Notes: generated by a model from the letters alone, not told the origin. Shown: positions 7,077 to 48,581, counted from the first letter of the stretch. The stretch is 64,000 nucleotides of DNA from Dehalococcoidia bacterium (GCA_965217675.1 OZ244559.1:2131979-2195978), one strand, 5' to 3'. Translations and numbers: made by a program.

Positions 7077-8366
7077 CTAGATGCGGGCTGCCAACCGGTC
7101 CGCCGCAGCCACGCGGTAGTCCTCATCTCGACTGACGAGCACAGACGCGGAGCGCACCTTGTAGCAATCCGGGTGGGTGGCAGCAAAGGACTCAATGCCC
7201 TCCTGCAGGTTGCGGCACTCCTTCAGCAGCCGGCGGCGGTAGGCGATGATGGCGCTGTCGCTGGAGCCGAGGTGCTCGCCGGCGCGCCACGTGAGGGCGC
7301 CCATGGACTCCTGCGTCCCCATGTCCTGCTCGCCGATGCCCTTGATGCCGGTGAAGGTGCGGTAGCGCTGCTCTTCCCGGTCGATGTTGTAGTCGTTGCT
7401 GCTGTTGCTCAGCGGCCGGTATTTGTGGTCCGTCAGCGCGTGGAGACCGTGGCCGCTCCAGTGCTCCTTGACCTCCTCCTCCGTGAAGGGACGATAGGGG
7501 TTCCAGGAAATGCTGAAGTTCCAGCAGTGGTAGTCGTCCAGCGGCACCCAGGCGTGTCCGCCAACCTGGTGGCCGGGCTCAATGGCGCCGGGGATCATCT
7601 GGAAGAAGGGCATAAGGAGTTGGGTGATGCGGAAGTAGTAACGGTTCTGATCGGCCTCGCGGCGGGCGGATATCAGAAGGCCGTAGTCCGTCTCGTCCAC
7701 CACGAACCGGGGAGACGTGTCCGTCGTCGTGAAGCCCAGCGGCTGACCGCCGCCTCTGCGGGCTGTGCGCTTTTCCGGGTTGTCGCGCATGAAAGGCGTG
7801 ACGCCGCTGTGCAGGAAGGAGATGTGGCTCGAGTCGATGCCGCCCTCGACGGACTGCACCCAGTTGCTTTCCTGCACTCGCTTGGAAATGACACGGTGGC
7901 TGTCAGGCAACTCCGCCCAGTCAATGCGGGGCAGCTCCGGCATGTGCTCGGCCGGGCCCATGTAGCACCAGATCAGGCCGCCGTATTCGCGGGCGGGGTA
8001 GGCCTTGATCTTGACCTTGTCCTTGAAGTTGGACTCAGCGGGCTCCGAGGGCATGTCGACGCAGTCGCCGTTCACGTTGTACTTCCAGCCGTGGTAGACG
8101 CAGCGCAGCCCGGATTCCTCGTTCCGACCGAAGAAGAGGCTGGCGCGGCGGTGCGGGCAGTAGTTGTCCACCACCCCAATTTCGCCGTTGGAGTCCTTGA
8201 ACGCGACCAACTCCTCGCCCAGCAGCGTGGTGCGGACCGGTGGACAGTCCGGCTCCGGCAACTCCTCGGGTAGGAGGAAGGGCAGCCAGAACCGTCGGAC
8301 GTATTCGCCCATGGGCGTGCCGGGACCAATTCGACACAAGTATTCGTTGTCGATGTCGCTCAACAT
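7077..8366 (-). CDS. Rieske [2Fe-2S] non-heme iron oxygenase, alpha-subunit type
   Basis: CPHRRASL...CVYHGWKY Rieske motif and EGGIDSSHISFLH mononuclear-iron motif. AAGAGGAGAG SD 7 nt upstream of the ATG. Confidence 0.9.
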   Translation of the reverse strand: MLSDIDNEYLCRIGPGTPMGEYVRRFWLPFLLPEELPEPDCPPVRTTLLGEELVAFKDSNGEIGVVDNYCPHRRASLFFGRNEESGLRCVYHGWKYNVNGDCVDMPSEPAESNFKDKVKIKAYPAREYGGLIWCYMGPAEHMPELPRIDWAELPDSHRVISKRVQESNWVQSVEGGIDSSHISFLHSGVTPFMRDNPEKRTARRGGGQPLGFTTTDTSPRFVVDETDYGLLISARREADQNRYYFRITQLLMPFFQMIPGAIEPGHQVGGHAWVPLDDYHCWNFSISWNPYRPFTEEEVKEHWSGHGLHALTDHKYRPLSNSSNDYNIDREEQRYRTFTGIKGIGEQDMGTQESMGALTWRAGEHLGSSDSAIIAYRRRLLKECRNLQEGIESFAATHPDCYKVRSASVLVSRDEDYRVAAADRLAARI

Positions 8367-14260: not shown

Positions 14261-14860
14261 ATGACGACCGACGCAACACCGCCTATGGAAGACCGCGGGG
14301 CGCTCCTCTCACAGGCCATCGACGCGATGCGCGCATTGGCCGCGAACGTCAGCGGCGACCAGTGGGACGCGCAATCGCCCTGCACCGAGTGGAAGGCCAG
14401 AGACGTGGTCAACCACGTGGTGGGGGGCTCGTCGATGATCACCTCGCTGTTCGCGGGGAAGACGTGGGAGGAGGCCGGGGGAAGCAGCGAGAGCATCCCT
14501 GAGGGCGGCGACCCACTGGCGGCCTTCGACGCGGCGACGGGTGCGGCGAAGGAGGCGGTCTCCAAGCCGGGGGCCATGGAGCAGGAGGTCCAATTTGCTC
14601 GCGGGCCCATGCCGGGGGCGGGCTTTGCCTCGATGATGTTCACGGACGTCCTCATCCACGCCTGGGACCTGGCGAAGGCGACGGGGCAGGACGCGACGCT
14701 GCCCTCGGAGCTGGTGGAGGCGTCGTACGCGCTTGTGCTGCCGCGCAAGGGGCAGATGCCGGCGCCGGCCTTCGGGACGGAGGTGGACGTGCCGGAGGAC
14801 GCGGACACGCAGACCAAGCTGCTGGCGATGCTGGGGCGCGACGCAGGCTGGTCGGCCTAA
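14261..14860 (+). CDS. DinB/MDMPI-like metal-binding protein (TIGR03086-like)
   Basis: About 200 aa with an N-terminal DinB-type helix bundle signature (QWDAQSPCTEWKARDVVNHVVGG). Confidence 0.7.
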   Translation: MTTDATPPMEDRGALLSQAIDAMRALAANVSGDQWDAQSPCTEWKARDVVNHVVGGSSMITSLFAGKTWEEAGGSSESIPEGGDPLAAFDAATGAAKEAVSKPGAMEQEVQFARGPMPGAGFASMMFTDVLIHAWDLAKATGQDATLPSELVEASYALVLPRKGQMPAPAFGTEVDVPEDADTQTKLLAMLGRDAGWSA

Positions 14861-15067
14861 GGGCCCTTTCAGGGCTTCTGCTACCCGTTGTTCCCGAACG
14901 CTCTCGTCCTTCACCGGCGTTGCTGGGAGGGGTGAAGGTGGGCGCGTCCGGCCAATGCGCATGGCCGCCTCCGGGACCGCTGAACCGCCTCGCACACAAG
15001 GTCGGGGCTGCCGCATTCCGCCATGCTGCGGGTGTGGAACTGCGCCAACTGGGGAATTGTTTTCTGG

Positions 15068-15770
15068 GGCCGCCGTAGCTGCGGGATCTGAGGCCGCCGT
15101 AGCTGCGGCTTTTTTGAAAAATGATTGGGTTCATAGCTGCCGTGACGCATTGCAGCTACAAATCCAATGCAAGAACGCTCCGCGGTGTTGAAACAAATCC
15201 CTGCTGTTGGGGAGCCGAACGGCGCGCCGTCATCGATGCGGGGCGGGCGGTTGGATGGCGCGATGGCGCCCACGACGCGGTTGGGGTTTGCTACGTGCTG
15301 AAGGCTGCGGTTGATTGGGGACTGCACCATTAGAGGGGCTGTGTCTCGGGCGGCCGTAGCTGCGGCTGACCCTCTTGTGCATTCGATTTTGTAGCTGTGG
15401 TGTCGCATTGCAGCTACAAATCCAAGAAACATATTTTCGGCGAACGCCAACTCCTGCTGTTGCAGGCCGAACGGCGACCGGTCCTCGCTGCCGATGGTGC
15501 AGGTGGCTACGTCCTGATTGCTGCGGTTGGTTGCGGCTTGCACCATTAGAGGGGTTGTGTCTCGGGCGGCCGTAGCTGGAGCTGGTCCTCTTGTGCATTC
15601 GATTTTGTAGCTGCGGTGTCGCATTGCAGCTACAACTCCAAGAAACATATTTTCGGCGAACGCCAACTCCTGCTGTTGCAGGCCGAACGGCGACCTGTCC
15701 TCGCTGCCGATGGTGCGGTTGGCTACTTCCTGATTGTTGTTGTTGATTGCGGCTTGCATGCGGGGAGGGT
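15068..15770. repeat. Three tandem direct repeats (about 257, 216, 216 bp) preceded by a duplicated 17-nt near-palindromic motif
   Basis: Units begin near 15092, 15349 and 15565. Units 2 and 3 align without indels, with 14 mismatches in 194 nt by hand alignment. Motif GGCCGCCGTAGCTGCGG at 15068 and 15092, related copies at 15349 and 15565. Conserved hairpin TTTGTAGCTG-N13-CAGCTACAAA at 15388-15420 and 15604-15636. Confidence 0.85.
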
Positions 15771-15941
15771 AGCGGGGGGTGCGGCGTGGGGGCAATGGGG
15801 TGGTGGCAGGGTGGGTGTGGGATGCGTGGCACCATTCGGTGAAATGTCTCGCTCTAAAAAGCGCAAGTGCGGTGCGGTGCGACTACCCTGTGGCCAAGCG
15901 AATTCACTTGGCTCCAGAGTAGCAACAGGTATGGCGCTCAA

Positions 15942-15971
15942 TTGACTGGCATTGCAGGACCTGACTACGAT
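15942..15971 (+). promoter_or_regulatory. Candidate promoter of the DUF3800 gene
   Basis: TTGACT (15942-15947), 18-nt spacer, TACGAT (15966-15971). Confidence 0.35.
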
Positions 15972-16017
15972 GCTAGCATCTCGTATGGGGTACCCTTGGA
16001 GGCTGGAAACTCCGGCT

Positions 16018-16917
16018 ATGGGAAATACCGGTCAAGAGGCTAATGTTCCTGTGACACAAATCATCGCCTACGGAGATGAGAGCGGACTTGATGAGAAGGC
16101 CGAATATTTCCTGATGGGTGGATTTGTAGGGACACCACTGGACTGGCAAACCGTTAGGACCGAATGGCAACAAGTCTTGCGTCAGTTTGGAGTCCCTGAG
16201 TTCCACTCAGCCGATTTCTTTGGAGGCAAAGGGCAGTATCGATATTGGGAAGGGAGACACCGGGATTCGCTACTAGATTCGTTGTTAAGTGTTCTGGGCA
16301 ATAGCAGCGTCATTCCCTTGGGTTGCGCCATAACCATGAGTGAATTCTTAGAACTCACCAGTAATGAACGCCGCCTTCTTTCGGGTGCACACATGAAATT
16401 ACGCCTGTCTCTCAGGAGGCGTGATACAAGTCAACTTTTTGAGACTGGGATCGGGAGGAAACTAGAGGGTCCCGATGCCGAAAAGCAAGTTTATCGCGTG
16501 GGATTCAGATACTTCCTGGCCGCGGTGGCCTACAAGTCGCCACCAAGTTGCAGTATTGAGGTCTTCCTTGACAAAAATGAGGAGTTTGCGCCAGGTGCCT
16601 TTGAATACTTCACGGAAAGAAAAAAGGGACACAAGTATCCTGGCGGCCGTAAGTTACAGAGTCTAGATTTCGTTGACTCAGCCAAGGAACCAGCCATCCA
16701 GGCTGCTGACCTCTATGCCCACGTAGTCGCCAGGCAGCTAAACGGACACCCAAAGGACCCTAGACGACAACGAGTATGGGAAGCTTTGTGTGAGGGGCAC
16801 CCCCCGCATCTGATGAATTATCAAACCTTTAGGCAACAGCTAGATCCGTTTGAGCAGTGGGACCGCCAATTCAACATTGATTGGGGATTCCCGCCCGATC
16901 ATGAAAGCGCACTTTGA
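16018..16917 (+). CDS. DUF3800 domain-containing protein
   Basis: N-terminal IIAYGDESG block and C-terminal AIQAADLYAHVV block, the two hallmark DUF3800 motifs. G+C is 45-55% in four hand-counted 60-nt lines versus about 63% in the flanks. The ATG 16018 start (GGAGG upstream) fits the candidate promoter; ORF-track start 15952 lies inside it. Confidence 0.75.
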   Translation: MGNTGQEANVPVTQIIAYGDESGLDEKAEYFLMGGFVGTPLDWQTVRTEWQQVLRQFGVPEFHSADFFGGKGQYRYWEGRHRDSLLDSLLSVLGNSSVIPLGCAITMSEFLELTSNERRLLSGAHMKLRLSLRRRDTSQLFETGIGRKLEGPDAEKQVYRVGFRYFLAAVAYKSPPSCSIEVFLDKNEEFAPGAFEYFTERKKGHKYPGGRKLQSLDFVDSAKEPAIQAADLYAHVVARQLNGHPKDPRRQRVWEALCEGHPPHLMNYQTFRQQLDPFEQWDRQFNIDWGFPPDHESAL

Positions 16918-16961
16918 CGGTGGGGGGAAATGAAGTACGACCAATTCCCATATAACGGGTG

Positions 16962-16980
16962 AGTGGCGCGACACGCCACT
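16962..16980 (+). terminator. Short hairpin downstream of the DUF3800 gene
   Basis: AGTGGCG-CGACA-CGCCACT, 7-bp stem, no T-run. Confidence 0.3.
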
Positions 16981-17173
16981 GAGCGACATCATCGACATTA
17001 AGCGGGTTCACATTCAAGGGTGTGTTTATAGAGGACGAGCCCAATGGTGACTGCGACGATGAATGCCGGGCCGCCCTGCCCAGGGTCTGACCTCCTCTCA
17101 AGACCCTCACCATGTTTTCGAAAGGCTCAGGGCGGCGTGGGACGCGACGGGTGCTGTTGGTGGCCAGAACCCG

Positions 17174-17211
17174 GTCCCGCAGCTGCGGGACGGGCGCTTC
17201 GCGAAGCGCCC
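17174..17211. repeat. Two abutting perfect palindromes (18 bp + 20 bp)
   Basis: GTCCCGCAGCTGCGGGAC (17174-17191) immediately followed by GGGCGCTTCGCGAAGCGCCC (17192-17211). Both are exact reverse complements of themselves. Confidence 0.85.
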
Positions 17212-17321
17212 CTACGGTGGGGTGGGGGAGTTGGGGAGGCGATGGAGGTTTGGGTCAAGCCAAGGGAACGAGCAATGCTCGGTGCCCAATGGGCTGGAAG
17301 TGATAGCGTTGCCTCAGCAGG

Positions 17322-22623: not shown

Positions 22624-23451
22624 ATGCTGCGTCTCGGGTGGTTCAGCACCGGCAGGGGTGAAGGGTCACGGGGCCTTTTCACCTGCGTCAAAGACGCCAT
22701 CGACCGGGGGGAACTCGCCGCGGAGATCGCCTTCGTATTCTGCAATCGTGAGGCAGGAGAGCACGTGGGCAGCGACGCCTACATGGCATTGGTGCGCTCC
22801 CACGGCATCCCGGTAGTCGCGCTCTCGTCGCAGCGCTTCCGTCGAGAGCGGGGCGCCGCCCGCTTTGCCGAGGTACGCGAGGCTTACGACGACGAGACCT
22901 TCGCCCTCCTCGACGGGCACACAGCAGACCTCCACGTTACGGCGGGATACGGGCTGATCTTCGGGGCGGCCATGGCGCGGAGCCGGCCCGCACTGAACCT
23001 GCATCCGGCGTCGCCCGAGGGACCCGTCGGCACCTGGCAGCAGGTCATCTGGCAGCTCATAGAGTCGCGGGCCGAGGAATCCGGCGCCTTCACGCACCTG
23101 GCAACGGAGGACCTGGATCGCGGGCCGGTGGTGACGTACGTCACTTTCCCCATCCGTGGCGGGGACTTTGATGGTCTCTGGGCGCAGGCCGAAGCCTCGT
23201 CCGTGTCGGAGTTTCAGGCGACACAGGGTGAGGAAACCCCGCTCTTCCAGGCCATCCGACAGCAAGGCGTCGTGCGCGAGAGGCCGCTGCTGCTGGAGAC
23301 GCTGAAGGCGCTTGCGGAGGGCCGGATGCGGGTCGCTGGTCAGGGCATTGTTGATGCGGATGGTCGCGCCGCCGGGCCGCTTTGCCTGAACACGGAGGTG
23401 GAGCTGGCTGTGGCGACGGCCAGGCAACCCACGCCGGGGTCGCAGGCGTGA
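22624..23451 (+). CDS. Formyltransferase family protein (PurN-like N-terminal domain)
   Basis: Formyl_trans_N-like layout: [22 protein letters not shown] in place of [15 protein letters not shown]. Confidence 0.65.
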
Positions 23452-24452
23452 TATCCGCTCGGCCCGCCGGGGTCCTCATTATGCTGGCGGCGCTGGCCGT
23501 CGTCATTGCGTGCGGGCCCTCGGCGGAGGAGATCGACGCGACGACGACCGCCAAGATCGCGACAGCCGTCGCCGGCTTGCCCGATCCTGCAGCCCTACCA
23601 ACGGCAACACCCATCGCCTTCCCGACGCCGCCGCCGACGCCAACACCCATCGCTCTGCCCACGCCGCTACCGACAGCGACGCCGGCCACCTTCCCCACGC
23701 CGCTGCCGACGGCGACGGCCATCGCCTTGCCGACTCCACTGCCGACGCCAACGCCCTTCGCGCTCCCGACGCCGCTGCCAACGGCTACGCCGGTCACCTT
23801 TCCAACCCCGTTGCCGACTGCCACGCCGCAAGTCCTCGACCCTGACGTGGGCCCTGACGCATCCGCCCTGTACCAGCAGGTTGCAGGCTCCGTGCTGTAC
23901 ATCGAGACGCCGTCCGGCGCCGGCACGGGGTGGGTTGTTCGAGAAGGGCTCATTGTCACCAACCAGCACGTGGTGAACGGAGAGGATGCCGTGACCGTGC
24001 GCCACGCCTTCCTGCCGCCGTTCCGGGCGGAGGTCGTGTTCACTGACGCGGTTATAGACGTGGCCTTCATCTCCTACAACACGGAAACCACCACGCTCGA
24101 GCCGCTGCCGACGCGACTTGTGAACGGCGCCAACCTGGGTGAGACGATGCTGGTGCTGGGCTACTCTTCAATCGGCGTGCAGGAAGACGGGACAGTGGGC
24201 AGGGCAGCTATCAAGCGAGGCGTGCTCTCGCAGATCGTGAGCTTCGGAGACCAAGGGGGCCGCCGGCTGCGCATAGACGCGGCCGTCGACCCGGGCGACA
24301 GCGGGGGGCCGGTTCTGGACACGGAGGGGCGCGTTGTGGGCATGAGCAAGGGTGTCGTGGAAGTGGACGAGACCGGACGGCGCATCGTGGGCATTTTCTA
24401 CGCGGTGCACATGGAGGAGATCGAAGCGCTGCTGGCCCAATTCGAGGGTTAG
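23448..24452 (+). CDS. Trypsin-like serine protease (S1 family) lipoprotein with Pro/Thr-rich repeat linker
   Basis: Catalytic His (VTNQHVV), Asp (DVAFI), Ser (GDSGGPV). Signal peptide with lipobox VIAC. GTG 23448 overlaps the preceding TGA stop (GTGA). Confidence 0.8.
23613..23828 (+). repeat. Six in-frame 36-bp tandem repeats inside the protease gene
   Basis: Encodes [12 protein letters not shown] / [12 protein letters not shown] / [12 protein letters not shown] / [12 protein letters not shown] / [12 protein letters not shown] / [12 protein letters not shown]. Confidence 0.85.
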
Positions 24453-48525: not shown

Positions 48526-48534
48526 TGCTATAAT
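48526..48534 (+). promoter_or_regulatory. Candidate extended -10 promoter element for tig
   Basis: TGCTATAAT (TGn + TATAAT), 53 nt upstream of the tig start. Confidence 0.4.
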
Positions 48535-48581
48535 TGAAACGACCCTCACACGAGGCAATTGAAACAACCCTCACACGAGGC
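48532..48581 (+). repeat. 25-bp tandem duplication in the tig leader
   Basis: AATTGAAACGACCCTCACACGAGGC (48532-48556) and AATTGAAACAACCCTCACACGAGGC (48557-48581), one mismatch. Confidence 0.85.

Follow-up and report, generated by a model that had tools for sequence, protein, structure and literature searches.

Genes for the small terminase subunit (TerS) can lie next to a pac or cos site, as G1P of SPP1 does with the pacL and pacR boxes and Nu1 of lambda with the R sites of cosB. Satellites and other hitchers, among them phage-inducible chromosomal islands (PICIs) and Staphylococcus aureus pathogenicity islands (SaPIs), marine VEIMEs, and PICI-like tycheposons, combine terS with accessory or defense cargo and are associated with tRNA 3′ ends, partial tRNA repeats, and tandem arrangements (PMC9618062; bioRxiv 10.1101/2020.12.28.424599). 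Here we describe a tandem array in a 64,000-nucleotide stretch from a Dehalococcoidia bacterium (GCA_965217675.1 OZ244559.1:2131979-2195978), called the window below. Its units evidently are the 3′ part of a terS-derived module of about 300 bp that is dispersed in high-GC Dehalococcoidia and whose sense strand is the minus strand of the window.

The module resembles the TerS-pac/cos systems in that its gene is of a family with PHROG TerS matches, with homologues at the TerS position in viral contigs, and in having repeated short boxes beside the gene, the usual build of TerS recognition sites. It differs from them in that no TerL, portal, or other phage gene accompanies the solitary chromosomal gene, of which usually only the last 25-45 codons are left and which is found at nine or more dispersed sites. 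The family also lacks a recognizable N-terminal helix-turn-helix (HTH) domain, and binding of the boxes by TerS is only predicted. The terS-bearing satellites and tycheposon-like elements are the nearest described systems, of which the module is an undescribed, phage-derived hitchhiking variant. Like them, some modules adjoin tRNA-Ala or tRNA-Met genes, show duplication of a tRNA end, or are accompanied by low-GC cargo. However, known satellites are 5-25 kb in size and include genes for integrase, regulators, and replication, whereas the module is about 300 bp long with none of these nearby; its cargo is a single gene, and it has no known helper phage. When loci were examined for PICI-like islands, integrase, primase, and replication genes were not found, and an att-like tRNA-end repeat appeared only at L005/L006.

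RESULTS

Three tandem units of a dispersed module

Region 15063-15759 consists of three tandem units with a period of 216 nt. Tandem Repeats Finder delimited 15290-15758 (period 216 nt, 2.2 copies, 91% matches) and a 24-nt duplication at 15063-15108, and a repeat search placed units 1, 2, and 3 (U1, U2, and U3) in register. Between U2 (15349-15542) and U3 (15565-15758) there are 14 mismatches in 194 positions and no indels, and the two diverge from about 15759. The repeats, their period, and this mismatch count had all been given in a preliminary description of the window and were borne out, as were a hairpin in each unit and near-palindromic boxes, the one at 15096-15109 being followed by TTTTTT. 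The module and its units occupy the following positions.

15802-15811, minus strand: upstream conserved box CCCTGCCACC, the module start; CCCTG(A/C)CAC is found in all promoter-bearing copies of the alignment
15766-15795, minus strand: promoter-like region, with TTGCCC at 15795-15790, an 18-nt spacer, TACCCT at 15771-15766, and 6 nt to the ATG
15565-15759, minus strand: unit 3, the sole promoter-bearing unit, with its ATG at 15759-15757 and a decayed C-terminal terS remnant without an in-frame stop
Codons ending at 15682, minus strand: unit 3 core remnant, ...IGSEDRSPFG
15349-15564, minus strand: unit 2, 95% identical to unit 3, without a promoter
15063-15348, minus strand: unit 1, of another subfamily, with core remnant PRIDDGAPFG and a 1-nt insertion behind the core relative to L001

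The hairpin pattern gave eight dispersed matches in one complete Dehalococcoidia chromosome from a metagenome-assembled genome (MAG), OZ252245.1, and protein searches of ENA assemblies yielded further copies. Alignment of all copies revealed a common plan. The module begins with a box, CCCTG(A/C)CACC, followed by TTGCCCCC, about 17 nt, GCTACCYT, 5-6 nt, and an ATG; the hexamers of this part, TTGCCC and TACCYT, are promoter-like, with a 17-18-nt spacer between them and 6 nt from the second one to the ATG. Next come a short open reading frame (ORF) with the conserved core L-A-R-M-V-R-I-(D/E)-(D/E)-R-x-R-F-G, a variable A/T-rich stretch, the palindrome TTTGTAGCTG-CAATGCGnCACnn-CAGCTACAAA of 33 nt with a conserved 13-nt loop, one or two boxes CAGCTACGnCGG, and a tail, GAnAACAAnnGCCCAAAAC. 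The start (CCCTGACACC...) and the end (CCGTGAGAACAAC...) of the module weakly resemble each other. The hexamers and their spacing ahead of the ATG are conserved across L001-L014, from which we infer a promoter function. Because the hexamers end 6 nt before the ATG, the small gene is probably transcribed as a leaderless mRNA.

The units of the window are unequally related. From core to box, U2 and U3 are 95% identical, but U1 shares only 71-72% identity with either. The closest relatives of U1 are L001 (83%) and L011 (77%), and U2 and U3 are nearest to L004. We read the array as a mosaic in which U1 stems from one subfamily and U2 and U3 from another, the latter two apparently being recent duplicates of each other. 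A reading of the repeats as template and variable repeat of a diversity-generating retroelement was discarded, as the differences between U2 and U3 are not adenine-specific.

Frame-preserving spacing had been put forward as a property of the repeats. The hairpin spacings in the window, 258 and 216 nt, are indeed multiples of 3, but those of related arrays are 114, 225, 209, 208, and 515. Frame preservation is thus not a family trait, and the kept frame across the window units is probably a coincidence; what the relatives preserve is the hairpin, not the frame.

Relationship of the module gene to small terminases

The module gene family appears to be of the phage TerS type, because its members match PHROG TerS families and its viral homologues lie ahead of TerL and portal genes. 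The complete protein has about 110 aa (RKRGGQPGNQNARKHGFYS ... LARMVRIDDRVRFG-stop). An exhaustive HMMER search gave 158 representative clusters, mostly of 100-180 aa, which form a coherent alignment with the typical ending ...RxRFGx-stop. Two PHROG families annotated as terminase small subunit were matched, phrog_1889 by 44 of 57 members (best E-value 7.8e-10) and phrog_509 by 33 (best E-value 8.2e-07); the L011 protein scored 1.1e-07. In the IMG/VR viral contigs L018 and L020, the homologue lies immediately 5′ of a Terminase_6C TerL, which is followed by an SPP1-type portal; in a third, L021, it lies 5′ of a GpA-type TerL (ATPase/nuclease).

A long form of 108-122 aa with the N-terminal motif RKRGGQPGNQNARKHGFYS is encoded at L007 (2182-2520), in P0001-P0003, and in L011, the last being frameshifted on a contig of 1x coverage. 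The AlphaFold model of the long form (pLDDT 79) shows a disordered basic tail and then three helices, with no recognizable HTH domain. None of the 57 family members had a Pfam match, and no PADLOC model matched the unit peptides or the long form. In the chromosomes, the modules stand alone and share the same promoter-ATG junction, and neither the window copy nor those of the MAGs lie upstream of TerL.

The interval between terS and terL of one viral contig (L018, 1620-1725) contains several GTAG-containing boxes and two perfect 9-bp hairpins, and could be a candidate packaging site of that phage. None of the repeats beside terS in the phage contigs is a palindrome homologous to that of the module.

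Coding strand and decay of the window copies

We compared codon changes in the 14-codon core of six preserved copies. In the sense frame, their first, second, and third codon positions hold 3, 4, and 9 variable sites, and 42 synonymous and 59 nonsynonymous codon differences were counted. In the frame of the Cys-containing plus-strand ORFs, the same copies gave 10 synonymous versus 91 nonsynonymous differences. The pooled ratio of nonsynonymous to synonymous changes (pN/pS) was 0.39 for the preserved copies but 2.9-3.9 for the window units relative to the core consensus.

The window copies are decayed. An intact full-length TerS ORF is absent from the window, whose units retain just the last 25 or so codons of terS. 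Their cores read IGSEDRSPFG in U2 and U3 and PRIDDGAPFG in U1, compared with VRIDDRVRFG in the family, with nonconservative changes at the conserved RIDDRxRFG core. The stop behind RFGx, TGATGA in L011, is lost in L001 and the window, where CAACAG stands in its place, and U1 is frameshifted by its 1-nt insertion relative to L001. Comparison of U2 with U3 in all six frames gave 2-3 synonymous versus 8-11 nonsynonymous changes, and no frame was constrained.

14911-15759, minus strand: 282-aa read-through ORF, across all three units and 150 nt beyond

Owing to the loss of the stop codon and to a period divisible by 3, the remnants run together in one open frame, which as a whole covers 14911-15795. 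The 282-aa ORF has no Pfam match, and we judge it to be a fortuitous read-through of three dead remnants. The preliminary description had listed both this open frame and the short plus-strand ORFs, all of which exist, and had suggested a tandem family of small Cys-containing peptide genes. The synonymous and nonsynonymous counts argue otherwise. Since the plus-strand frame mirrors the codons of the sense frame, these ORFs are evidently its antisense shadow rather than genes, and their shared head, (T/S)HCSYKS, is the translation of the conserved palindrome loop. A decaying repeat protein had been offered as another explanation; the decay is real, but what decays is three small-terminase-like 3′ ends and not a repeat protein.

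The palindrome and its phased boxes

The window contains the following copies of the palindrome and boxes.

15131-15161: palindrome of unit 1, with a weakened outer stem (TCATAGCTG ... CAGCTACAA)
15389-15419: palindrome of unit 2
15605-15635: palindrome of unit 3, sense strand TTGTAGCTGC-AATGCGACACC-GCAGCTACAA
15073-15084 and 15097-15108: the two boxes of unit 1, 24 nt apart
15354-15365: box of unit 2, sense CCGCAGCTACGG, 35 nt past the palindrome 3′ arm
15570-15581: degenerate box of unit 3, sense CTCCAGCTACGG, 35 nt past the palindrome 3′ arm

A 28-nt palindrome pattern matched three times in the window versus 0 expected from shuffles. The box pattern CCGTAGCTGCGG, with starts at 15073, 15097, 15354, and, in degenerate form, 15570, gave 7 matches versus 1.7 expected.

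In an alignment of 19 copies, 91.6% of the cells of the 10-bp stem were paired and 16 cells were unpaired. None of the 10 stem pairs had changed on both sides, the substitutions instead breaking pairs, and shuffles performed as well or better. The loop is as conserved as the arms, with the invariant bases AATGyGnCAC, and mean per-column identity is 87% for the palindrome versus only 65-80% for the flanks of the copies. The heptamer of the 3′ arm, CAGCTAC, recurs as direct repeats at offsets of 20, 54/55, and 88 from the palindrome start in nearly every module, with intervening sequence that differs among modules; in the window, successive copies lie 35 nt apart in U2 and U3 and, in U1, 34 and then 24 nt apart. 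The lack of compensatory changes, the conserved loop, and the fixed phasing of the heptamers point to a predicted site in the DNA that an oligomeric protein would bind by sequence, rather than to a folded RNA or a plain terminator. Of the preliminary description, then, the repeats, hairpins, boxes, and decay stand, and the coding and noncoding RNA readings largely do not.

Two copies depart from the common palindrome. At L008 806-849 (module sense on the minus strand), the loop is inverted relative to its flanks, unlike in every other copy, as though the segment between the 10-bp arms had flipped. The diverged L010 copy retains the arms, with the loop replaced.

The box of U1 that precedes the run of T has a terminator-like score on the plus strand (15096-15115). 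It lies 235 nt 3′ of the stop codon of the MDMPI gene, for which it may serve as a co-opted terminator.

Locus context and cargo

The array lies in a low-GC patch of 2.1 kb (15000-17100; 51-59% GC versus a background of about 66%) comprising the array and one DUF3800 gene. Low-GC cargo starts about 50 nt past the upstream box of the module. Syntenic loci were found through orthologues of the flanking MDMPI/TIGR03086 gene and compare with the window as follows.

15952-16917, plus strand: cargo gene DUF3800 of the window, 51% GC, divergent from the module promoter
Window: three units and DUF3800 cargo in the gap between the MDMPI and methyltransferase genes
L012: MDMPI protein identity 95%; two units; cargo, a different low-GC gene of 292 aa
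L013: MDMPI protein identity 87%; two units and other repeats; no cargo
L014: MDMPI protein identity 82%; one unit in a 388-nt gap; no cargo

The cargo thus varies at the orthologous locus. The flanks of the window and L012 are 90-91% identical, but the interior is unalignable; the L012 cargo (7420-8298) encodes a 292-aa protein with CxxC at its start, about 45-50% GC, and no Pfam match. L031 and L032 lack the module, but their synteny downstream of MDMPI also differs, so the ends of the module are undefined there. Elsewhere, a 1.7-kb insert of 55% GC, located exactly at the upstream box of the module, distinguishes L007 from L009, and the cargo of L006 is a split GmrSD restriction gene. No primase or replication genes were found near the window module or at the examined loci.

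Other repeats were observed nearby. A REP-like palindrome (GGGACGGGCGCTTCGCGAAGCGCCCCTAC) at 17175-17243, in the gap between DUF3800 and the methyltransferase, belongs to a separate dispersed family with kin at L007 4991-5049, at L008 1298-1355, and near the methyltransferase gene in L012 and L013. In L013 (7150-7780), tightly packed copies of another short repeat (CTGGATTCCTGCCTTCGCAGGAATGACG and its relatives) occupy the space between module and methyltransferase. Farther away in the window, a 25-nt unit, AATTGAAACAACCCTCACACGAGGC, is present twice in tandem at 48532-48581 (96% matches) in slightly lower GC upstream of clpP/clpX. Nested 36-nt and 108-nt tandem repeats at 23601-23827 lie within ORF 23382-24452, a trypsin-like peptidase, and probably encode a low-complexity linker.

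DISCUSSION

The identity of the array is well supported by the comparisons above: it appears to be a tandem set of modules with decayed terS tails on the minus strand, built partly by accretion and partly by duplication. We favor, with a probability of roughly 0.55, an overall explanation in which the units are such terS-derived modules, selection maintains the promoter region, palindrome, and boxes of the module as DNA sites, and the most likely role is pac-like. Given the terS origin of the module, a terminase-recognition site would be the first choice for the palindrome and boxes. In combination with the TerS remnant, such a site would tie the locus to packaging by a helper phage. The module lies at a spot of low-GC accessory gene exchange, here involving the DUF3800 gene.

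Several observations weigh against this explanation. The relatives were all drawn from a limited range of MAG assemblies. The PHROG matches (best E-values of about 1e-7 to 1e-10) span only part of the phage profiles, the TerS gene position was seen in three viral contigs, no Pfam or NCBIfam family covers the unit peptides or the long form, and a PDB sequence search and Foldseek (PDB and BFVD) returned only generic helical matches. The coding test used only 14 codons and six copies, and an antisense frame with identical wobble positions scores similarly. Palindrome scans of IMG/VR, as of JGI metagenome contigs, gave no matches, and neither did blastn searches of phage and plasmid collections with the array. 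Because no phage or viral contig with the palindrome was found, the palindrome is linked to packaging only by association. There is no terL, portal, integrase, or replication gene near the window copy. Finally, two loci adjoin tRNA 3′ ends, and at one of them 19 nt of the tRNA end are duplicated, an arrangement that suits recombinase arm sites at least equally well.

The tRNA-end duplication and the mosaic array make such arm sites the main rival, possible though less probable. The palindrome and boxes would be recombination sites, of the integrase/excisionase arm type or accessory, and the modules the att-proximal arms of small, tandem-inserting integrative islands; successive integrations would then have left the window array as their scar, and DUF3800 would be cargo of an island. 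The two-unit array of L006 has its box end 140 nt from the 3′ end of tRNA-Ala (L006 1121-1196). L005 (2390-2421 and 3210-3260) carries the last 19 nt of tRNA-Ala and the same 800 nt or so (92% identical), both units included, with a second tRNA 3′-end fragment on the other side, which could be an att-like signature of tandem integrations. The L010 module faces the 3′ end of tRNA-Met. The two-subfamily mosaic in the window is what accretion, more than simple duplication, would be expected to leave, and the weak likeness of module start and end and the variable cargo of close relatives also fit. However, no integrase is present in the 64-kb window or beside the examined modules, bar a weak DDE fragment in L005. 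Most modules have no tRNA or tRNA fragment nearby, including that of the window, which contains no tRNA or tmRNA gene. The flanks of the L007 insert show no clear direct repeats or target duplications, and recombination leaves the terS derivation of the module unexplained.

Returning to packaging, a bolder and rather unlikely version of the pac-like explanation would have the module act as a minimal packaging beacon. In it, a chromosomal pac-like site, made up of the palindrome and the heptamers at their phasing of 34-35 nt, and a TerS-derived peptide, expressed from its own leaderless promoter, would act on the terminase of an infecting phage, either recruiting or subverting it. In-situ packaging would then drive frequent exchange of the adjacent single-gene cargo, making the module a built-in platform for lateral transduction. 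Alternatively, the peptide would poison terminase assembly as a defense. Under either version, a phage-derived element of about 300 bp would operate without integrase or replication genes.

A related but doubtful proposal is that the preserved short ORFs encode functional peptides of 40-60 aa from the TerS C-terminal helix, acting as antiphage decoys of terminase assembly, with the palindrome as their regulatory or terminator element and the window copies dead. L001, L002, L004, L008, and L010 retain LARMVRIDDRVRFG, with mostly third-position changes and the low pN/pS of 0.39, the promoter-ATG junction is common to all short forms, and the long form is predicted to have a basic tail and helices. 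The neighbors include the GmrSD-type restriction gene and other low-GC accessory genes, and small terminases of phage satellites have been counted among phage-interference genes (PMC9618062). Yet the tested core is very short, the frame past the core and the position of the stop are not conserved, the orthologous locus in L014 has not kept the peptide, and core residues are lost in the window units; with no PADLOC match, interference would have to be assumed.

We consider it improbable, and less likely than a pac-like or recombinase role, that the array is a tandem structured RNA, as the preliminary description had suggested, or that the palindrome is merely a terminator or 3′ stabilizer of the small gene with no function at the DNA level. 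The window hairpins, at −14 to −20 kcal/mol, are far more stable than shuffled sequence on either strand (z of −3.3 to −5.2). In full-length copies the palindrome lies 20-45 nt past the stop codon, where a terminator would be expected, and the conserved promoter suggests that the region is transcribed. Nevertheless, searches against Rfam gave no match at gathering score in the whole window and only chance-level matches at E up to 10 in 14800-16100. Substitutions disrupt pairs without compensation across the 19 copies, the loop is conserved, and the heptamer repeats stand unpaired at a fixed phasing of 34-35 nt. The palindrome has no following U-tract, several copies have a separate small stem-loop with a U-run just ahead of it, and the L008 element persists despite its inverted loop.

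Finally, that the array is a functionless prophage or satellite fragment, duplicated by slippage and conserved only through its youth, would suit the decayed window peptides, the neutral-looking differences between U2 and U3 in every frame, and the lack of a nearby mobility gene, but is very improbable given the strongly uneven conservation (87% per column in the palindrome versus 65-80% in the flanks, with invariant loop bases), the fixed phasing of the boxes, and the retention of the module at the same locus where the flanking protein is only 82% identical.

Known repeat families account less well for the module. Like REP/BIME elements (repetitive extragenic palindromes and their mosaics) and miniature inverted-repeat transposable elements (MITEs), it is short, dispersed, and intergenic, contains a palindrome with GTAG, and is sometimes arranged in tandem. 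However, it is far longer than a REP and has its own promoter-like region and a protein-coding remnant with phage homologues. Terminal inverted repeats and target duplications were not seen, and no RAYT or other transposase is linked to it. The gene remnant and promoter of the module are unlike a REP or MITE, and a REP/MITE reading seems unsupported. Integron attC arrays share with the module tandem units, a hairpin behind a short ORF, and variable single-gene cargo at a fixed locus, but the 33-nt palindrome is shorter than attC and lacks the R″/R′ GTTRRRY motifs, and the cargo genes lack a hairpin copy of their own. With neither intI nor another integrase in the window and no GTTRRRY in the palindrome, a cassette array is not supported.

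The window copy itself is degenerate and of modest interest. It does carry a warning for annotation, in that what would be called a repeat protein of 282 aa/294 aa and a set of small Cys-rich ORFs corresponds to a decayed terS tail and its antisense shadow. If the palindrome and boxes are a terminase or recombinase site, the modules would mark places where accessory and defense genes are swapped in high-GC Dehalococcoidia. They would then be among the smallest phage-derived hitchhiking units described and would hint at the mechanism of this swapping in an uncultured lineage with almost no known mobile-element biology.

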